Shown: piece after piece, positions 3,593-47,229 of the stretch
Layout: the number at the start of each line of letters is the position of its first letter
Position numbering within the stretch: position 1 is the first letter of the stretch
From: an uncultured Candidatus Rokubacteria bacterium
GTDB taxonomy: Bacteria > Methylomirabilota > Methylomirabilia > Rokubacteriales > CSP1-6
DNA: 64,000 bases
Assembly: GCA_963747235.1 (NCBI GenBank)
Contig: CAVVEU010000024.1
Span: 480,001 to 544,000 of the forward strand
Direction of reading: 5' to 3'
The notes under the pieces: generated by a model
What the model was told of the DNA's origin: nothing
Seen by the model: the letters and a program-made list of their open reading frames with translations, nothing else
Database searches by the model: none
Made by a program: the position numbers and the translations under genes

Positions 3593-4591
3593 ATGAGCAA
3601 ATTGCATGTCCTGGTGACGGGTGGGGCCGGCTACGTCGGGGCCGTGCTGGTGCCCAAGCTGCTGGCCCAGGGCCATCGGGTCACGGTCCTCGATCTCTAC
3701 ATTTTCGGCGACCAGGTGCTCAAGGCTGTCAGTGGGCACCCGGGCCTCCGGGAGGTCAAGGGAGACATCCGCGATCGGCGGCTCCTCGAGCGCGAGCTCA
3801 CCGGCGTCGATGCGGTCATCCACCTCGCCTGCATCTCGAACGATCCGAGCTTCGAGCTGAACCCGGAGCTGGGCAAGTCGATCAACTACGACGCGTTCCT
3901 GCCCCTCGTGGAGATCGCGAAGGACAAGGGCGTGCGGCGGTTCATCTACGCCTCGTCGTCGAGCGTGTACGGCATCAAGGACGAGGAGAACGTCACCGAG
4001 GATCTGCCGCTCCAGCCGCTGACCGACTACTCGAAGTACAAGGCCCTCTGCGAGGAGGTGCTCCTGAAGGCGCAGGCTCCGGGGTTCACGAGCCTGATCC
4101 TGCGGCCGGCCACCGTGTGCGGGTACTCCCCGCGGCTGCGGCTCGACCTGGCGGTCAACATCCTCACCAATCTCGCGGTGAACACCGGGCGCATCACCGT
4201 GTTCGGGGGCGCCCAGAAGCGGCCCAACATCCACATCGAGGACGTGACCGATCTCTACGTGCGGTCGCTCGAGTGGCCCGAGGAGAGCATCGACGGCCAG
4301 ATCTTCAACGCGGGCTACGAGAACCACACCGTGTCCCAGCTCGCCGACATGGTGGCCGGGAGTCGTGGGCCGCGAGAAGGTGGACATCGTGACCACGCCC
4401 ACCGACGACCACCGCTCGTACCACATCTCGTCGGAGCGCATCAAGCGGATGCTGGGATTCGAGCCGAGCCACAGCGTCGAGGAAGCGGTGCGCGACCTCT
4501 CGCGCCGCCTACGGCCAGGGATGCGATCCCCAATTCGATGACCGACAAGCGGTACTACAACATCAAGACCATGTTGGAGGTGAAGCTCTAG
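3593..4591 (+). CDS. NAD-dependent nucleotide-sugar epimerase/dehydratase (extended SDR); two compensating indels ~4360 and ~4500
   Basis: 'VLVTGGAGYVG', 'YASSSSVYG', 'YSKYK' (YxxxK). An alternate frame restores 'TTPTDDHRSYHISSERIKRMLGFEP'. Confidence 0.88.
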   Translation: MSKLHVLVTGGAGYVGAVLVPKLLAQGHRVTVLDLYIFGDQVLKAVSGHPGLREVKGDIRDRRLLERELTGVDAVIHLACISNDPSFELNPELGKSINYDAFLPLVEIAKDKGVRRFIYASSSSVYGIKDEENVTEDLPLQPLTDYSKYKALCEEVLLKAQAPGFTSLILRPATVCGYSPRLRLDLAVNILTNLAVNTGRITVFGGAQKRPNIHIEDVTDLYVRSLEWPEESIDGQIFNAGYENHTVSQLADMVAGSRGPREGGHRDHAHRRPPLVPHLVGAHQADAGIRAEPQRRGSGARPLAPPTARDAIPNSMTDKRYYNIKTMLEVKL

Positions 4592-4592
4592 C

Positions 4593-5717
4593 ATGCACGT
4601 TCCCTATTCGTACCTGCGCGACCAGTTCGCCGACTCCGAGCCCATCCTCCGCGACATCAAGGGGCTGCTCGAATCCACCCAGTTCACGCTGGGTCCGCCG
4701 GTGGCCGAGTTCGAGGGGCGCTTCGCGCGCCTCTGCGGGGCGCGGCACGCGATCGGGGTGGGCACCGGCACCGACGCGCTCTCGCTCTCGCTCAAGGCGC
4801 TCGGAGTCGGGCCGGGCGACGAGGTGATCACCGCCGCGAACACCTTCATCGCCACCGCGGGCGCCATCGTCCAGGCGGGCGCCCGGCCGGTGTTCGTGGA
4901 CGTGCTCGACGACTTCAACCTCGATCCGGGGAAGATCGAGGCGGCCATCACCCCCCGGACGCGGGCGCTGCTGCCCGTGCACTACGCAGGCCAGCCCGCC
5001 AAGATGGGTCCGATCCTCGAGATCGCGCAGCGCCGCGGGCTGCCGGTGGTCGAGGACGCCTGCCAGGCCATCAGCGCGGCCATCGACGGTCGGCTCGTGA
5101 GCAACTTCGGCGTGGCGGCCGGCTTCAGCCTGCACCCGCTCAAGAACCTCAACGTCTGGGGTGACGGAGGGGTGATCGTCACCAACTCCGCCGAGCTGGA
5201 CGCGAAGCTCCGGCTCCTGCGCAACCACGGCCTCGTGAATCGCGACGAGGTGGAGATCTTCGGGCACAACTGCCGGCTCGACACGCTGCAGGCGATCGTG
5301 GGCAACCACCTGATCGGCGACACCGAGGCGATCACCGCCGCCCGCATCAAGAACGCCCTCGCGCTCGACGCGGGGCTTCGGCCGCTGGCGCCGCGGGTGC
5401 GGGTGCCCGCGCGGCTGCCCAGCGAGCGGCACGTCTTCCACCTCTACATGTTCGAGGCGGACGATCGCGACGGGCTCCTCGCCTGGCTGCAGCAGAAGGA
5501 GATCGAGGCGAAGATCCACTATCCGGTCCCGCTCCACCTGCAGCCGGCGAGCCGGCGCCTCGGCTACAAGGAGGGCGACTTCCCGGTGGCGGAGCGGCAG
5601 GCCAAGCGGATCATCACGCTCCCGGTCCACCAGCACCTCCGCGCCGACCAGGTGAAACACATGATCGATTCCATCGCCGAGTTCTACGCCGATGAGCGCT
5701 TGCGCGAAGAGCCTTAG
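4593..5717 (+). CDS. DegT/DnrJ/EryC1/StrS PLP-dependent sugar aminotransferase
   Basis: 'GDEVIT..NTFIATAGAI', 'VEDACQA', 'FSLHPLKNL..WGDGG' (PLP lysine), 'NCRLDTLQA'. Confidence 0.92.
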   Translation: MHVPYSYLRDQFADSEPILRDIKGLLESTQFTLGPPVAEFEGRFARLCGARHAIGVGTGTDALSLSLKALGVGPGDEVITAANTFIATAGAIVQAGARPVFVDVLDDFNLDPGKIEAAITPRTRALLPVHYAGQPAKMGPILEIAQRRGLPVVEDACQAISAAIDGRLVSNFGVAAGFSLHPLKNLNVWGDGGVIVTNSAELDAKLRLLRNHGLVNRDEVEIFGHNCRLDTLQAIVGNHLIGDTEAITAARIKNALALDAGLRPLAPRVRVPARLPSERHVFHLYMFEADDRDGLLAWLQQKEIEAKIHYPVPLHLQPASRRLGYKEGDFPVAERQAKRIITLPVHQHLRADQVKHMIDSIAEFYADERLREEP

Positions 5718-7882: not shown

Positions 7883-8923
7883 ATGCGCCAGCTCAAGTAC
7901 CGCGAAGCGATCGACGAAGCGACGCGCCAGGCCATGGCCAAGGACGAGCGGATCTTCGTCATGGGTGTGGGCGTGGACGACCCGAAGGGCATCTTCGGCA
8001 CCACGCGCGGGGCGTTCGAGCAGTTCGGGCCGACCCGCGTGTTCGACACCCCGCTGTCGGAGGCGGCGCTGACCGGCATGGGGGTCGGGGCGGCGATGCG
8101 CGGGTTCCACCCGCTCCTCGTCCACGCCCGCAACGACTTCCTGCTGCTGACGATGGACCAGATCGTGAACAACGCGGCCAAGTGGCGCTACATGTCCGGC
8201 GGCAAGCTCAAGGTGCCGCTCACCATCCGCGCCATCATCGGCCGGGGCTGGGGCCAGGCGGCGCAGCACTCGCAGAGCCTGCAGGCCATGTTCGCGCACG
8301 TGCCCGGCCTGACCGTGATCATGCCCACGACGCCCGCGGACGCCAAGGGACTGCTCATGACCGCGCTCAGCAGCGACAGCCCGGTCATCTGTCTCGAGCA
8401 CCGGTGGCTCTACGACAAGAGCGGCCCGGTGCCGGAGGATCCGTACTACACCCCGTTCGGGGTGGGCTCGGTGGTGCGGCCGGGGCGGGACGTCACGATC
8501 GTGGCCGTCTCGCACATGGTGCTGGAGGCGCTGCAGGCGGCCGAGGCGCTCGCCGCCGAGGGTATCGAGGCCGAGGTGATCGACCCCCGGACCCTCCGGC
8601 CGCTGGACTCCGGGCTGATCTGCCGCTCCGCGGCCAGGACCGGGCGCCTGGTCATCGCGGACACCGGCTGGCGCAGCTACGGGGTCAGCGCGGAGATCGC
8701 GGCGCGTGCGGCCGAGGAGCTGTGGGGGGTGCTGAAGGCGCCCATCAAGCGGGTCGCGCTCCCCGACGTGCCCACGCCGGGCAGCTCGGTCCTCGAGGCG
8801 GCGTACTATCCGGGAACCCGCGAGATCGTCGCCGCGGTGAAGCAGTGCCTGCAGGCCCCGGCGGGCGCCAGCGCGGACGGAGCCATGCCGAGCAGCCGGA
8901 AAGAATTCGAGGGGCCATTCTGA
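7883..8923 (+). CDS. TPP-dependent dehydrogenase E1 beta / transketolase C-terminal-like subunit
   Basis: 'RVFDTPLSEAALTG..VGAA', 'QAAQHSQSL', 'GRDVTIVA', 'EVIDPRTLRPLD'. Confidence 0.9.
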   Translation: MRQLKYREAIDEATRQAMAKDERIFVMGVGVDDPKGIFGTTRGAFEQFGPTRVFDTPLSEAALTGMGVGAAMRGFHPLLVHARNDFLLLTMDQIVNNAAKWRYMSGGKLKVPLTIRAIIGRGWGQAAQHSQSLQAMFAHVPGLTVIMPTTPADAKGLLMTALSSDSPVICLEHRWLYDKSGPVPEDPYYTPFGVGSVVRPGRDVTIVAVSHMVLEALQAAEALAAEGIEAEVIDPRTLRPLDSGLICRSAARTGRLVIADTGWRSYGVSAEIAARAAEELWGVLKAPIKRVALPDVPTPGSSVLEAAYYPGTREIVAAVKQCLQAPAGASADGAMPSSRKEFEGPF

Positions 8924-8924
8924 C

Positions 8925-10094
8925 ATGACGATCTCCGCGAACGTGGTCGACTACGAGCAGGTCACCGGGAGCTACGAGAGCACGCTGAACACGCAGCTCC
9001 GGGGCTTCCGGGGCGGGGCGCGCTTCCTGGAGCACTGGGTCCACGATCCGGACCCGGTCAAGAGTGTCATCAACATGATCGAGGCGGCGGCCACCGACGG
9101 GCTGGCCGACGTCACCGTCCTCCTGGGAGCCCGGAGCCAGGCGGCCCTCGACCTGGGGCGGCTCGATGAGCTGGCCGGCGCCCTCGGCGAGGTGACGACG
9201 GAGGCACAGGAGGGCGGGCTCGCCCTCACGGTCCGCTTCACCAGCGCGGCGGCTGCCGCGCCCGGGCTCGGAGCGGAGGCGCGCGACCGCGCGCGGCGGG
9301 CCCGCGAGGCCCGTGACGCGCGCCTGCGCGCGCAGGCCGGGCCGGCGCCGGCGCCGGCCCGCGACGGGCTCCATCCGGTTTACCGCGAGGCGGTGCGCCA
9401 GATCCTCTCGGGCGCGCTGACGCACGAGGGCCTGGTGGCCACCATGCCGGGCGTGGAGCGGCTCTCGATCGCGCGCGACGGCTGGGTCCTCGAGGCCTTC
9501 GTGGACAGCGCGACGCACCGGGTCCGGGTGGCCCGCCATCGCGGCGCGCGGAAAGAGACGCGCGCCCTCCTCGAGGGGCTGTGCGCGATGATGGAGGACA
9601 AGCCGCTGATCGAATGCGCCGACCACGCGGTGATTCGCCTGGAGTACCGGCTGCGCGATCGTCTCCAGGAGCGTCCGGTGGCCGGCCTCGTCACGCCCGA
9701 GAGTGTCGAGCCGGCCTTCGGGCCGCTCGGCGTCGCGGTGCGCGGGTTGCTGGCCGAATACCGGCGCCGAACCGGCTACGACGTGATCGAGAACCGGTTC
9801 GATCCCGAGCCCTCGGCGGGCTGGAAGGCGCTCACCGCGGAGCAGCGAATGGCTCAAGTGCAGGCCGCGCTGGACGTTCTCGTGGCGCAGCATGGGCTTC
9901 GACCGGGCGACGTGGTCTGCACGCACGTGGATCGCAGCACCCGGACCACGGTCGAGGTGCGCGCCGAGCTTCCCGCGCGGTCGAAGGCCGCCTTGATGAT
10001 GGACCTCGAGCGAGGCCTCAAGGCCCGCGTCGAGTCGATGCTGCACCTGTATCAGGCAGAGATGCACGACAAGAACAAGATTCGGCGGCTCTGA
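8925..10094 (+). CDS. Hypothetical protein with degenerate IscU/NifU-like segments
   Basis: Tightly coupled 389-aa ORF. The middle resembles the IscU fold ('LEAFVDSATHRVRVARHRG...LCAMMEDKPLIEC'). The C-terminus resembles Nfu without CxxC. Resemblance judged by eye. Confidence 0.6.
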   Translation: MTISANVVDYEQVTGSYESTLNTQLRGFRGGARFLEHWVHDPDPVKSVINMIEAAATDGLADVTVLLGARSQAALDLGRLDELAGALGEVTTEAQEGGLALTVRFTSAAAAAPGLGAEARDRARRAREARDARLRAQAGPAPAPARDGLHPVYREAVRQILSGALTHEGLVATMPGVERLSIARDGWVLEAFVDSATHRVRVARHRGARKETRALLEGLCAMMEDKPLIECADHAVIRLEYRLRDRLQERPVAGLVTPESVEPAFGPLGVAVRGLLAEYRRRTGYDVIENRFDPEPSAGWKALTAEQRMAQVQAALDVLVAQHGLRPGDVVCTHVDRSTRTTVEVRAELPARSKAALMMDLERGLKARVESMLHLYQAEMHDKNKIRRL

Positions 10095-42592: not shown

Positions 42593-43648
42593 CTAGCGCG
42601 CGCGCGCGAGGCGGTACCGCGCCACCGCCGCGTTGTGATCCGCCAGGTTGGTGGAGAACGTGTGGAACCGCTCGTCCAGCGACACGAAGTAGAGGTAGTT
42701 CACGCGCGCCGGCCGCACCGCCGCCGCGATGGCCGCGCGCCCCGGGCTCGCGATGGGGCCGGGCGGAAGACCCTGGCGGCGATACGTGTTGTAGGGTGAG
42801 TCCACCTGGAGATCCTCGCGGGTGAGCCGCCGGCGGTCCTTGCCCACCGCGTACTGCACGGTGGGATCCGCCTGCAGCGGCATGTCGCGCCGGATCCGGT
42901 TCCAGAACACCGCGGAGATGAGCGGCATCTCGCTCGATTCGACGGCTTCCTTTTCGATGATGGAGGCGAGCGTGAGCACCTGGTGCAGGCTCACGTCGCG
43001 GCCGCGCGCTTCCACGAGCAGCTCGGGCGAGATCTTCTCGCGCATCCGCGCCACCATGCGGGCCAGGACCTCCTCGGGGGTCATGCCCTTCACGAACTGA
43101 TAGGTGTCCGGGAAGAGGTAGCCTTCCACCGAGTCGGCCTGGATGTCGAGGTTCTTCAGGAAGACGGGGTCCTTGCCGACCCGGAGGATGTCTTCGGCCG
43201 AGACCAGCCGCTCGGTCTGGAGCAGCCGCGCCAGCTCGGCCAGGGTGCTGCCCTCCGGGAAGACCACCATGTGCTGGAGGACCTGGCCGCCCGCGATCTG
43301 CTCGAGCACCCGCACCGTGTTCGAGCCCGCGGGGATCTGGTACTCGCCGGCCTTGAGGCTGCGGAAGCTGCCCCGGGCCAGGGCCAGGAGGACGAAGCCG
43401 ACCCGGCTCCGGATGACCCCCGCTTCGTCCAGGATCTCGGCCACTTCGATGACGCCCTTGTGGGCCGGGAGCTCCACGACCCGGGCCGAGGCCCGCAGCG
43501 GCGCCGGGACGCTGAGGATCCACCAGCCTTCGAGCAGCAGGGAGAGGAGGGCCACGACCACCACGAAGCCCACGGCGGCCCGCCAGGTCGGCCCGGGGCG
43601 TCCAGGCCCAACCCCCCATGTCGGAAGCGATCGGGGACGTTCCATCAT
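42593..43648 (-). CDS. mltG: Endolytic transglycosylase MltG (YceG)
   Basis: N-terminal TM, 'LKAGEY', 'EGYLFPDTY', 'LASIIEKE', 'LQADPTVQY', 'SPYNTY...GLPPGPIASPG'. Confidence 0.95.
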   Translation of the reverse strand: MMERPRSLPTWGVGPGRPGPTWRAAVGFVVVVALLSLLLEGWWILSVPAPLRASARVVELPAHKGVIEVAEILDEAGVIRSRVGFVLLALARGSFRSLKAGEYQIPAGSNTVRVLEQIAGGQVLQHMVVFPEGSTLAELARLLQTERLVSAEDILRVGKDPVFLKNLDIQADSVEGYLFPDTYQFVKGMTPEEVLARMVARMREKISPELLVEARGRDVSLHQVLTLASIIEKEAVESSEMPLISAVFWNRIRRDMPLQADPTVQYAVGKDRRRLTREDLQVDSPYNTYRRQGLPPGPIASPGRAAIAAAVRPARVNYLYFVSLDERFHTFSTNLADHNAAVARYRLARAR

Positions 43649-43727
43649 GGTGAGCCTTCATTCTGGCCGGACTGGGATTCTCAGTCAAACCGGGGGAGTG
43701 GGGAAGGCTGGCGGTCCCGGGGGTTGC

Positions 43728-43736
43728 TGGTATAAT
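43728..43736 (+). promoter_or_regulatory. Consensus extended -10 (TGgTATAAT) for the stand-alone rpoA gene
   Basis: Exact TGnTATAAT; strong SD GAGGAGG just before ATG 43783. Confidence 0.7.
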
Positions 43737-43782
43737 GACCGGCCTGGGGCGACCCGCCCCAGAACTCTGAGGAGGGAAACCC

Positions 43783-44781
43783 ATGCAGGAGCTGGTGCTT
43801 CCAGTCCGTCACGAATGGCTCGCCCGGGAGCGCGCCTACGGGAAGATCGCGATCGAGCCCTTCGAGCCGGGCTTTGCCCTGACGGCGGGCAATGCCTACC
43901 GCCGGGTGCTGCTGTCGTCCATCACGGGGTCCGCGCCCACCTGGGTCAAGATCGAGGGGGTGCTGCACGAGTTCTCGCACCTGGTCGGGATGCGCGAGGA
44001 CACCCTCGACATCATCCTGAACCTGCGCAAGCTCGTGTTCACGCTGCACGTCAACCGCCCCAAGCTGCTCCGGCTGAAGGTGCAGGGGGTGCGGACGGTG
44101 ACCGCGCGGGACTTCGAGCCCGATCCGGACGTGGAGATCCTGACGCCGGACGTGGCGCTGGCCACGCTGGACAAGGACGGCAGCCTCGAGATGGAAGTGT
44201 GCGTGGAGCGCGGGCGGGGCTACCAGGCGGCGGAGAAGCGCGAGCCGGAGGCGCTGCCCATCAACGCGATGATGATGGACGCGGACTTCTCGCCGGTGAA
44301 GCGCGTGAACTTCCACGTGGAGCCGAAGGGCGCGCACGAGCGGCTCATCATGGAAGTGTGGACCAACGGGACGGTGACGCCGGAGATGGCGGTGGCCGAC
44401 GCCTCGCGGATCCTCGACGACCAGTTCGCGCTGCTGATCGACTTCCCGACCACGCCGCCGGTGCAGACCGAGGGGACCGAGGCCGTCGCGGGCGAGCCCG
44501 CGCCGCGGAGCGAGGTGAACGAGCACCTCTTCCGCAACGTGGACGAGCTCGAGCTGTCGGTGCGCGCGTCCAACTGCCTCAAGACCGCGAACATCCGGAC
44601 CATCGCGGATCTCGTGCAGAAGACCGAGTCGGAGCTGCTGAAGACCAAGAATTTCGGCAAGAAGTCGCTGAACGAGATCAAGACCATCCTGGGGGAGATG
44701 GGGCTCTCCCTGGGCATGCGTCTCGATCCCGAAGAGCTGGAGCGGCTGCGCGCTCACTACGAGCGCGCGTTCGAGACCTAG
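43783..44781 (+). CDS. rpoA: DNA-directed RNA polymerase subunit alpha, stand-alone divergent copy
   Basis: '[11 protein letters not shown]', 'VLHEFS', 'IILNL', 'GRGY', '[10 protein letters not shown]', CTD '[13 protein letters not shown]', '[12 protein letters not shown]'. No rpsM/rpsK/rpsD/rplQ neighbours. Confidence 0.95.
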
Positions 44782-44820
44782 ACCGCCTCCCGCTTCCCGC
44801 GCGTCCACCACGGCCTCCGG

Positions 44821-47229
44821 TCATCCGGGGGCCGTGCTGTTTTCGGGGGTCTTTTCCGAGATCGTTTCGGGGTCGAGCTCCCAGGTCTCGGTGACGCCGC
44901 GGGCCCACGCGGTCACGCGCAGCACGCGTCCGTCGGTCTCCAGGATGACCGCGCCGTCGCGGTCGGTGCGGTAGACGCGCGCGCCCGCCGCGTCGAGGCG
45001 GGCGAGCGCCTCCGCGCTCGGGTGGCGGAAGGGATTGCGTGCGCCCACCGAGATCACCGCGAGCCGCGGCCGGGCCCGCTCGAGGAACGGCGCGGTGGAG
45101 GAGAACCGGCTGCCGTGATGCGCGACCTTGAGCGCGAGGGCGGCCACCGGGCCGGCACGCTCGAGCAGTAGCGCCTCGCCGCGGGCGCCCAGGTCGCCCG
45201 CGAGCAGCAGCGACACGCCACGCCAGTCGAGCCGCAACACCAGCGACTGGTCATTGGCCGTCTGCGCCGGCTCCGGACCGGGGCCGAGCACCGTGATCAG
45301 CGCGCTTCCGAGCCAGAGGCGCTGGCCGGCCGCCAGCACGCGGCGGGGCGCGCGCGAGCGGAGCAGCGCGGCCACCGTCTCCGGCGCGCCGCCCGAAGGG
45401 CGCCCGCTTTCCCAGAACTCGCCCACGTGGAAGTGGGTGAGGACGGCGGCGAGCCCGCCGGAGTGATCGGCGTCCCAGTGGGTGAGCGCGACCGCGTCCA
45501 GCCGGGCGAGCGGCCGGTTCCAGAGAAACGGCGCCAGCACGCGCTCGCCCACGTCGAAGCGGCGGACGCCGCCGGGCCCGCCGTCCACGAGCAGGCGCGG
45601 CCCCTCGGGCAGCTCGATCAGCGCCGCGTCCCCCTGGCCGACGTCGAGGAACGTCACGCGGAGCATGGTCTCGGTCGGCCGGAGCCACGGCCAGATCGAG
45701 AGCGCCGCCACCAGGACCACCAGAACCCCCATCACGACCCGGATGCGGCGGGACGCGGCCATCCCCGGCGCGAGGAGGACCGCGCCGTACCAGGCGACCG
45801 CGGTCGCCGCGGACGGCGCCGGCAGGTGCACCATCGCGGCGGGCAGGGCGGCCGCCAGGGAGACGCCCGCGCGCAGCGCGATCAGGACGAGCCAGAGCGC
45901 GTGGAAGAGCAGCGCGGCGAGCGCGCCCGAGGCCAGCTCGACCAGCAGCGCGAGCATGCCGAGGGTCGTCGCCACCGCGGCGAGCGGCACCACGAGCAGG
46001 TTGGCGACCACGCCGATCAGCGAGAGCTGATTGAAGTGGGCGAGCATGAGCGGCGTGACCGCGGCCTGCGCGCCCAGGCTCACCGCCACCGCCGCCGCGA
46101 GCCAGGCGGGCGCGCCGCGCGCGACGAGGCGCGCCGTGATGACCGGCCCGAGGTAGACGATGCCCGCGGTGGCCGCGAAGGAGAGCTGGAAGCCGGGCTC
46201 CCAGAGATCGCCGGGCCGCCAGAGCAGGAGCGCGAGCACCGCGAGGGCCAGCGCGTTGGGGAGCTGGGACTCGCGGTCGAGCAGCAGGGCGGCGAGCAGC
46301 AGCAACCCCATCACGGTGGCACGCAGCACGGACGGCTGGCCGCCCACGACCAGCGCGAACCCGACGAGCACGACGGCGGCCACGCCCGCGGCGCCGCGGC
46401 GCGGGACCCCGCACATGGCCAGCCCGCCGAACACCGCGCCCGCGAGCAGCGCCACGTTGAAGCCCGACACCGCGAGGATGTGGTAGACGCCGGCCCGCCG
46501 GAAGCCGGCGTCGATTTCACGAGGCAGCGCCGACCGCTCCCCGAGCAGCAGGCCCGCCAGCAGCGCGGCCGACGTCTCCGGCAGGCGCGCGGTGATGACG
46601 CCGACGGCCCAGCGCTTCACCGCCACCGGCCACGGCGGAGCATCCGGCGTCAGCGCGGTGATCCGATCCGATCGCGCGTGGCCGACCAGGAGAATGCCCT
46701 CGCGCCGCAGATGTTCCGGATAGTCGAAGCCGCCGGGGTTCCGGAAGCCGACGGGCCGATGGAGCCGCGCGTCCACGAGCACGCGCTGGTCCTCGCCGAG
46801 CGGGAGCGCGAGCTCGCCGTAGACGGTGAGCTGGACGCGGCCCACCGCGGGCAGCCGCTCGGGACCCGCGTGCAGGGCGTCCACGTCGAGCAGGAGCCGC
46901 GTGCGATCCGGCGTCCAGCGGACCGGCTCCTCGGCGAGCCGCCCCTCCAGCGCCAGCGTCCCGACGAGCGCCCGCCGGGCCAGGTGATCGGCGGGCAGAG
47001 GCGACCCGGCGACGCGTAGCGCGCCCAGCAGGGTCAGGCCGGCCAGGACCAGCACCAGCGCCGCGCGCGGATGCCGGCGGCTCGCGAGCGCGGCGAGCAG
47101 GAGCATGCCGGCCGCGGCGACGAGCAGGCGCGGCGTGGGGAGCGATAGCCACGCGGCCGCCGCGATGCCCGCGGTGACGGCCGCCGCGGGCGGCAGGAGC
47201 GGCGCGGTCGCGAGCCGCCGCTCAATCAC
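44821..47229 (-). CDS. comEC: Competence protein ComEC/Rec2
   Basis: 'NPGGFDY', 'HILAVSGFNV', 'PSVLRATVM', 'PGFQLSF', MBL domain 'FLDVGQGDA', 'THWDADH', 'KVAHHGS', 'YRTDRDGAV'. Confidence 0.94.
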   Translation of the reverse strand: MIERRLATAPLLPPAAAVTAGIAAAAWLSLPTPRLLVAAAGMLLLAALASRRHPRAALVLVLAGLTLLGALRVAGSPLPADHLARRALVGTLALEGRLAEEPVRWTPDRTRLLLDVDALHAGPERLPAVGRVQLTVYGELALPLGEDQRVLVDARLHRPVGFRNPGGFDYPEHLRREGILLVGHARSDRITALTPDAPPWPVAVKRWAVGVITARLPETSAALLAGLLLGERSALPREIDAGFRRAGVYHILAVSGFNVALLAGAVFGGLAMCGVPRRGAAGVAAVVLVGFALVVGGQPSVLRATVMGLLLLAALLLDRESQLPNALALAVLALLLWRPGDLWEPGFQLSFAATAGIVYLGPVITARLVARGAPAWLAAAVAVSLGAQAAVTPLMLAHFNQLSLIGVVANLLVVPLAAVATTLGMLALLVELASGALAALLFHALWLVLIALRAGVSLAAALPAAMVHLPAPSAATAVAWYGAVLLAPGMAASRRIRVVMGVLVVLVAALSIWPWLRPTETMLRVTFLDVGQGDAALIELPEGPRLLVDGGPGGVRRFDVGERVLAPFLWNRPLARLDAVALTHWDADHSGGLAAVLTHFHVGEFWESGRPSGGAPETVAALLRSRAPRRVLAAGQRLWLGSALITVLGPGPEPAQTANDQSLVLRLDWRGVSLLLAGDLGARGEALLLERAGPVAALALKVAHHGSRFSSTAPFLERARPRLAVISVGARNPFRHPSAEALARLDAAGARVYRTDRDGAVILETDGRVLRVTAWARGVTETWELDPETISEKTPENSTAPG

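Follow-up and report, generated by a model that had tools for sequence, protein, structure and literature searches.

A conserved pair of diverged RNA polymerase alpha genes in a rokubacterial order: candidate halves of an oriented heterodimer

The textbook bacterial RNA polymerase carries two identical alpha subunits, and a heterodimeric bacterial alpha has so far been shown only in Francisella, the one studied exception. Two diverged genes for alpha are described here from an uncultured Candidatus Rokubacteria bacterium; one of them stands alone in the 64-kb stretch of DNA that was analysed (the window; contig CAVVEU010000024.1, positions 480,001 to 544,000), and the other lies in the ribosomal operon of the same genome. 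The stand-alone copy (rpoA_S) is named S throughout, and the operon copy O. As judged from comparison of the sequences, the S/O pair is conserved across the order, both copies are under purifying selection, and S keeps beta-side and O beta'-side features of alpha. S and O would probably assemble as an oriented alpha heterodimer, S facing beta and O facing beta', of an origin independent of that in Francisella. The wider proposition is that this order of Methylomirabilota, abundant among soil bacteria, builds its polymerase on an obligate oriented alpha heterodimer, arisen independently of Francisella, and that in at least two families the beta'-side alpha is devoid of a C-terminal domain, so that the one such domain of their polymerase would be tethered beside beta; we regard it as evenly balanced between being right and being wrong. 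The formation of the heterodimer, its orientation and its obligate nature are all matters that we infer from the genes.

The rpoA pair, its motifs and its ancestry

All three alpha domains were recognized in S by profile search (PF01193, E-value 3.2e-17; PF01000, 2.6e-29; PF03118, 2e-26), and its scores exceed the cut-offs of the curated NCBIfam rpoA equivalog models (NF003513, 373.1 vs 302; NF003519, 329.5 vs 277; TIGR02027, 316.8 vs 227.8). A preliminary description of this DNA had identified a full-length rpoA between mltG and comEC with an extended -10 and a Shine-Dalgarno sequence of its own, and this was borne out by the open reading frame, the domains and direct reading; the motifs that it named are all present in S, and its statement that rpsM, rpsK, rpsD and rplQ are not nearby held for the whole window, where tblastn found none of the four. 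It had also called for a search for a second rpoA in the ribosomal operon. That gene was found 364 kb from S on the same contig, within secY-map-rpsM-rpsK-rpsD-rpoA-rplQ, and the genome (88% complete, 42 contigs) holds exactly two rpoA matches, which are 38-41% identical. Simple relocation of an only rpoA, the alternative that had been foreseen, is rejected by this second copy. The term divergent, which had been applied to S, proved less apt, since S is overall the less divergent of the two alphas of this genome: on the rpoA models, O scores 315.5 bits vs 373.1 for S, and identities to 13 single-copy operon alphas of sister orders are 47-54% for S vs 39-45% for O.

The spread of the pair was surveyed in near relatives and, across the phylum, in genomes no less than 85% complete; the tallies take in four unpublished genomes (G068, G094, G084, and G122), which contributed no sequence to the analysis. 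Two or more rpoA matches were found in 32 of 41 near relatives (one match in eight, none in one) and in 76 of 87 genomes of the window's order (one in nine, none in two). Sister orders (n = 34) gave a single match in 29 genomes, none in one and two in four; three of these four cases were artefacts (one a split gene, one a fragment at the end of a contig and one a contig that was probably mis-binned), and only G135 was left with two full rpoA genes. An O-type rpoA was also seen at identical contig coordinates, with near-identical scores, in two genomes of different orders (G065:C124:1641-2567 and G099:C191:1641-2567), which suggests that the same contig was binned twice. Duplicated beta or beta' subunits, as partners of two enzymes, were not found among the genomes with rpoB (27) or rpoC (25) recovered out of 31 genomes of the order; each had one locus per genome, the sole exception being G036, with a further, partial rpoB where a contig ends, and these counts say nothing on the window's own genome. 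In that genome, an rpoB match begins at about 133232 of G000:C24 and covers model positions 3-868 only, in a stop-free frame that extends over unread bases; no match to rpoC was obtained.

Alignment of 55 sequences of S and 40 of O with 14 from sister orders and 44 from outgroups (a background of 58) revealed a reciprocal pattern of motif decay. Residues are given in E. coli numbering by a mapping of our own, which agrees with the numbering of solved chains and with residues mentioned in PMC3294249. Of 76 background-conserved columns in the N-terminal domain, 42 are kept by both copies, seven by S only, eight by O only and six by neither, and 13 are mixed. The S-only columns include E. coli positions of about 50, 57 and 66-68, among others, and the O-only columns are at about 43, 86 and 125, together with five positions of the loop around R191. 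The VLHEFS motif illustrates the first group, with V, L, H, E, F and S each present in 55/55 S sequences, and the background H, E and F each kept in 3% of O. Invariant in both copies (55/55 S, 40/40 O) are R40 and R41 (residue numbers of S), the latter the counterpart of E. coli R45, and most of the dimer-helix residues are likewise kept by S and O. K86 is retained in O (85%) and replaced by Arg in S.

The R191 loop represents the opposite loss. In O it reads xxRLGKxTDYEKL and is conserved at a fixed length of 10 residues in 40/40 sequences, as it is in 14/14 from sister orders and 43/44 outgroups. In S of the window it is five residues shorter than in O, where it is 'GVENARLGKVTDYEKL', and than in three solved alphas, as the preliminary description had claimed in speaking of a clean loss of five residues; the Arg at the R191 position, present in 91% of the 58 background sequences, is missing. 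The same description had asked whether the deletion is conserved. Within the genus the S loop spans 5-7 residues (16 S sequences including that of the window) vs 10 in other alphas, and across the order it varies from 5 to 13 residues with no conserved sequence, being degenerate in 55/55 S and invariant in the 40 O. Contigs from the RNA libraries of four studies cover S, for example 43754-44399, 43771-44405 and 44280-44776; they represent relatives at 90% likeness or more and indicate presence only, as opposed to expression level or where transcripts end, and none has an indel at the loop site, which they span. Stretches on the comEC side that have no RNA contigs are not counted as evidence. 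An assembly error behind the deletion, a possibility raised at the outset, is rejected by the genus-wide short loop and by these RNA contigs.

The two sets of retained residues may be compared with contacts established in E. coli, as these are quoted in PMC3294249. The alpha residues shielded by beta are 30-55 and 65-75, and R45 is required; for beta', the shielded residues are 175-185 and 195-210, and the requirements are K86, V173 and positions 180 and 200 left intact (PMC3294249). An enzyme with the substitution R191C, known as rpoA101, is described as assembling normally and as being unstable, with degradation of beta and beta' alike (PMC8092217). On this mapping, it is the beta-side features that S keeps and the beta'-side features that O keeps.

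The C-terminal domains of the two copies have also taken separate courses. That of S is canonical and almost invariant, with most positions identical in 55/55 sequences, including the SVRASNCL and NFGKKS segments with the DNA-binding residues, which we take to be R265, N268, C269, G296, K298 and S299 in E. coli. In O of family f1, the DNA-binding surface retains its Arg, Asn, Gly, Lys and Ser, and the domain is altered elsewhere, for example with 'ELPLPAR' where the canonical sequence is 'ELSVR'; the changed positions are presumably those of sigma and activator contacts in E. coli. In 12/12 loci of family f4 and the one locus (1/1) of family f3 (L037, L040, L054, and L075-L084), O ends after an acidic linker at 237-255 amino acids with rplQ directly 3', and its stop codon shares bases with the start of rplQ (ATGA) in the three of these loci whose bases were read one by one (L037, L040, and L054). 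An O C-terminal domain was not found in any frame at any of these 13 loci, and S is therefore the only source of an alpha C-terminal domain in those genomes. We know of no other natural bacterial alpha that is without one. A different state is seen in family f2, whose operon alpha (L085, G025:C235:400-2600, 598-1578, + strand) retains HEFS, the R191 loop and a canonical C-terminal domain, which is closer to that of S (68%) than to the O domain (51%). This single f2 genome is 73% complete, a single rpoA was found in it, and that gene branches at the base of the O clade; an undecayed copy in a basal position implies that the decay of O came after the duplication.

Within the genus, the ratio of nonsynonymous to synonymous substitution (dN/dS) for S was 0.140 over 78 pairs from 13 genomes, and that for O was 0.113 over 66 pairs from 12 genomes; the C-terminal domain taken by itself gave 0.027 in S and 0.096 in O. 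A decaying duplicate, for which relaxed selection had been named as the sign to look for, is rejected by the first two of these values, which are low in both copies.

A careful tree, built from 61 rows (S and O with 12 each, 13 from sister orders and 24 outgroup representatives), recovered an S clade (100/100), an O clade (100/99) and a clade uniting the two (100/97), and a quick tree of 106 rows was in agreement. Families branch in a broadly similar order inside the S and O clades, with deepest forks that differ or are weakly supported. S and O also have derived residues in common, among them one Trp present in 55/55 S, 40/40 O and 1/14 sister-order sequences and not among the commonest residues of the 44 outgroups. 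Recent horizontal transfer of S is unlikely because S and O are sister clades with these shared derived residues. The stems in the careful tree are long (0.56 and 0.32). In the free tree the united clade does not stand beside the other alphas of the phylum; a constraint that joins them lowers the log-likelihood by 5.8 units, and the approximately unbiased (AU) test does not reject it (p-AU 0.067).

The two rpoA genes of G135 (L036, G135:C3:118000-130000) lie at about 4082-5080 and 8024-9004, both on the minus strand. The second full gene is beside rpsK and downstream of rplQ, and rpsK is missing from between rpsM and rpsD. It keeps HEF, has a degenerate loop (VEPLKPG..DLLHRERL) as in S, and groups with an outgroup representative, not with S; it may be the product of an independent duplication with convergent loop decay.

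Proposed arrangement of S and O in the polymerase

It is proposed that the ancestral operon rpoA was duplicated in the ancestor of the order, that one copy lodged between mltG and comEC with its own promoter, and that the two copies then lost complementary functions. S would have kept R45 and VLHEFS, which lie in or next to the beta-protected segments, together with a canonical C-terminal domain for binding DNA and activators, as its R191 loop decayed; O would have kept the R191 loop and K86 as VLHEFS decayed and as its C-terminal domain diverged, to be lost in two families. In the assembled enzyme, S would occupy the beta-bound place (alpha I), and its C-terminal domain would be the chief one of the enzyme or the only one; O would occupy the beta'-bound place (alpha II). 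Since an alpha homodimer must fill both the beta and the beta' places, and neither copy has the full set of motifs, we infer an oriented S-O heterodimer.

In a predicted complex, the N-terminal domains of S and O bound each other through the usual helices with a score of 0.68, a mark reached by 58/80 solved complexes and 2/110 mismatched pairs; the best of three controls scored 0.00. Runs agreed in at least 78% of contacts, and the predicted local distance difference test (pLDDT) value of the partner was at least 86.

The preliminary description had offered two roles for S. The first, a second alpha in the beta-bound place of a heterodimer, fits the second rpoA, the order-wide pair and the reciprocal motif pattern that comparison revealed. 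The second, a specialised or alternative subunit that would reprogram the polymerase conditionally, is not supported: the C-terminal domain of S is canonical and near-invariant, and it is the sole one in families f4 and f3. For the same reasons, S is likely a constitutive core subunit and not a conditional alternative.

A number of points weigh against the oriented S-O heterodimer. The clade that unites S and O joins two long branches and may have arisen by long-branch attraction, and the AU test (p 0.067) fails to reject a grouping of the pair with the other alphas of the phylum. The counterpart of R45 is present in both copies, unlike in Francisella alpha2, so that the classical beta determinant does not discriminate S from O. 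The assignment to beta and beta' depends on E. coli footprints as quoted in PMC3294249; VLHEFS overlaps the 65-75 segment only partly, and the R191 loop falls outside both segments protected by beta', in the gap from 175-185 to 195-210. Since R191C is described as destabilizing beta as well as beta', it offers no specific pointer to beta' (PMC8092217). Conservative substitutions account for the other changes of S at positions linked to beta' (K86 to R, V173 to M or L, and K200 to R). To judge from the f2 genome, some members of the order may need only one alpha. The complex model does not separate a heterodimer from homodimers, and its pass may reflect likeness to solved alpha dimers. Finally, the RNA contigs attest to presence and give neither amounts nor the ends of transcripts, and DNA can occur in such libraries.

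Three other arrangements were considered. R45 in both copies and the indirect assignment of motifs to subunits would also suit a heterodimer with the opposite or no fixed orientation, whose motif losses would reflect other partners (omega, sigma or regulators), and not beta and beta'; D191 of the O loop, moreover, touches the other alpha in the complex model, which would place that loop near the dimer interface. This arrangement is nonetheless thought rather unlikely, as the split is consistent, with K86 and the loop region (beta' side) in O and residues 50 and 66-68 (beta side) in S.

Two alternative polymerases, in which S and O homodimers would form two core enzymes under different conditions (the conditional reprogramming of the preliminary description), are held to be unlikely. 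Each copy has a decayed motif that is invariant in nearly all single-copy alphas, and a homodimer needs both contact faces; an O homodimer would be without any alpha C-terminal domain in 13/13 loci of two families; and the promoter of S is a plain, strong extended -10 of the housekeeping type. In favour of two polymerases stand the retention of R45 and most dimer-helix residues in both copies, the promoter and conserved 5' leader of S apart from the ribosomal operon, which would make separate regulation possible, and the differences between the C-terminal domains at positions of sigma and activator contact in E. coli.

It is quite improbable that S, as a homodimer relocated from the operon, serves alone as the housekeeping alpha and that O is a decaying or moonlighting remnant: S is indeed the closer of the two to the single alphas of sister orders (47-54% vs 39-45%) and the better match to the rpoA models (373 vs 315 bits), and O is without VLHEFS and, in two families, without a C-terminal domain, but O is under purifying selection (0.113) and kept in its operon place across the order, its loop, invariant in 40/40, would be hard to explain outside the polymerase, and S is devoid of the loop whose Arg is described as needed by E. 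coli for a stable enzyme (PMC8092217).

The rpoA_S locus and its expression signals

The order acyltransferase-mltG, rpoA_S, comEC is conserved in 10/10 S loci inspected from families f1 and f4, with comEA in six of them. The features of the locus are collected in Table 1. At one locus of the same genus (L023, G013:C15:389229-392936), the S gene is in two pieces, which are 94-97% identical to the window, with a TGA inside, and may represent either an assembly frameshift or a real pseudogene. Breaks in rpoC that resemble this one were seen in G034 and G036, both long-read-like assemblies.

Table 1. Features of rpoA_S and its surroundings in the window
Feature	Position	Strand	Remarks
rpoA_S, stand-alone RNA polymerase alpha paralog, 332 amino acids	43783-44781	+	Open reading frame and profile matches
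mltG/YceG, neighbour of rpoA_S	42593-43648	-	
comEC, neighbour of rpoA_S	44821-47229	-	Then a comEA-like gene
Extended -10 TGGTATAAT of rpoA_S	43728-43736	+	Direct reading
GC-rich hairpin-like element CTGGGGCG-ACC-CGCCCCAG	43744-43762	+	Start of 5' untranslated region, directly after -10
Shine-Dalgarno GAGGAGGG	43769-43776	+	6 nt 5' of ATG; direct reading
GNAYRR, residues 36-41	43888-43905	+	Includes the residue equivalent to E. coli R45
VLHEFS motif, residues 60-65 (E. coli about 64-69)	43960-43977	+	Kept in S, scrambled in O
'PKGA' remnant of R191 loop, residues 181-184	44323-44334	+	
Canonical alpha C-terminal domain, residues about 246-316	44518-44730	+	PF03118 matches residues 244-304
Terminator-like hairpin and T run	44809-44846 (hairpin 44809-44836)	+	Between convergent rpoA_S and comEC; 12 pairs, 10 G-C, then CTGTTTTCGG

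The promoter of rpoA_S is called from its conserved extended -10 only; a scan for -35-dependent consensus promoters did not list it and returned nothing on the + strand. TGnTATAAT or TGnTATACT (in one case TATAGT) occurs at an equal distance from the start codon in 24/25 loci of the family, within spacers that are otherwise variable, and the version in family f4 is GCTATAAT. At the Shine-Dalgarno site, GGAGG or GGGGG is conserved among relatives. A promoter-like site directed toward mltG was noted on the minus strand at 43660-43688 (TTGACT, 17 nt, CAGAAT), and the 134-bp spacer between mltG and rpoA_S would thus hold two divergent promoters.

The GGGG...CCCC of the hairpin-like element is retained in most of 19 aligned S leaders, with weak covariation. 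The consensus fold of the leader has six pairs and an energy of -1.87 kcal/mol; the GGG/CCC stem shows no compensatory change in the 19 leaders, and the two pairs that do have such changes belong to a weak downstream stem, one pair of which is broken in 6/19 sequences. A conserved RNA structure is not established by so weak a fold with no compensatory change in the stem. The element could serve in mRNA stabilisation or in dosage control against the operon copy.

Known alpha pairs and the meaning of the S/O pair

The alpha1/alpha2 heterodimer of Francisella (chains alpha 1 and alpha 2 of PDB 6wmp) was shown biochemically, and the S/O pair resembles it in features described in PMC3294249, namely a pair of diverged rpoA genes of which just one lies in the ribosomal operon, and a lineage-specific duplication after which both copies evolved faster (PMC3294249). 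A complementary loss of contact determinants, suggestive of an oriented heterodimer, may be a further likeness: the reciprocal motif loss of S and O is clear, yet both keep R45 and the assignment to beta or beta' is indirect. It differs in its independent origin, in another phylum and across a whole order, and in an operon copy that is without a C-terminal domain in two families; the present pair is, moreover, known from genomes alone. S and O both keep R45, where Francisella alpha2 has Gln, and it is the relocated S that is the more canonical and is proposed for the beta side, whereas in Francisella the operon copy alpha1 binds beta (PMC3294249).

Duplicates of rpoA are also named in Chloroflexus species and Streptomyces avermitilis, which share with the present case a second rpoA in a free-living bacterium (PMC3294249). 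The Chloroflexus paralogs are described in that source as having no drastic substitutions in the dimerisation or beta/beta' regions and as possibly equivalent (PMC3294249), unlike S and O, each of which has lost one conserved motif. With the Rpo3/Rpo11 and Rpb3/Rpb11 subunits of archaea and eukaryotes, the pair has in common an unequal set of alpha-like partners, the oriented dimer, the reduction of one partner and the want of a pair of C-terminal domains, as set out in PMC3294249. Those subunits, however, are distant homologs that need extra small subunits for assembly, whereas the bacterial pair arose recently from a normal alpha. Oriented alpha heterodimers have reportedly been engineered in E. 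coli by removal of one C-terminal domain and use of the R45A mutation. Family f4, known from genomes alone, would be the natural equivalent of these constructs, with a full alpha beside one that is devoid of its C-terminal domain.

A literature search confined to main texts, with few subscription journals among them, found no publication on this pair. If correct, the oriented S-O heterodimer would be a second, independent and much older case that spans a whole order, and would indicate that the alpha homodimer repeatedly splits into specialised halves. S and O would then provide natural sequence 'mutants' that mark the beta-side and beta'-side surfaces of alpha, and f4 would offer a natural enzyme with one C-terminal domain, in which UP elements and activators would meet a single domain of fixed position. 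The pair would also represent a natural bacterial step toward an unequal pair of the Rpb3/Rpb11 type. As rpoA is used as a single-copy marker, the two copies in genomes of this order can mislead estimates of completeness and contamination as well as phylogenies.

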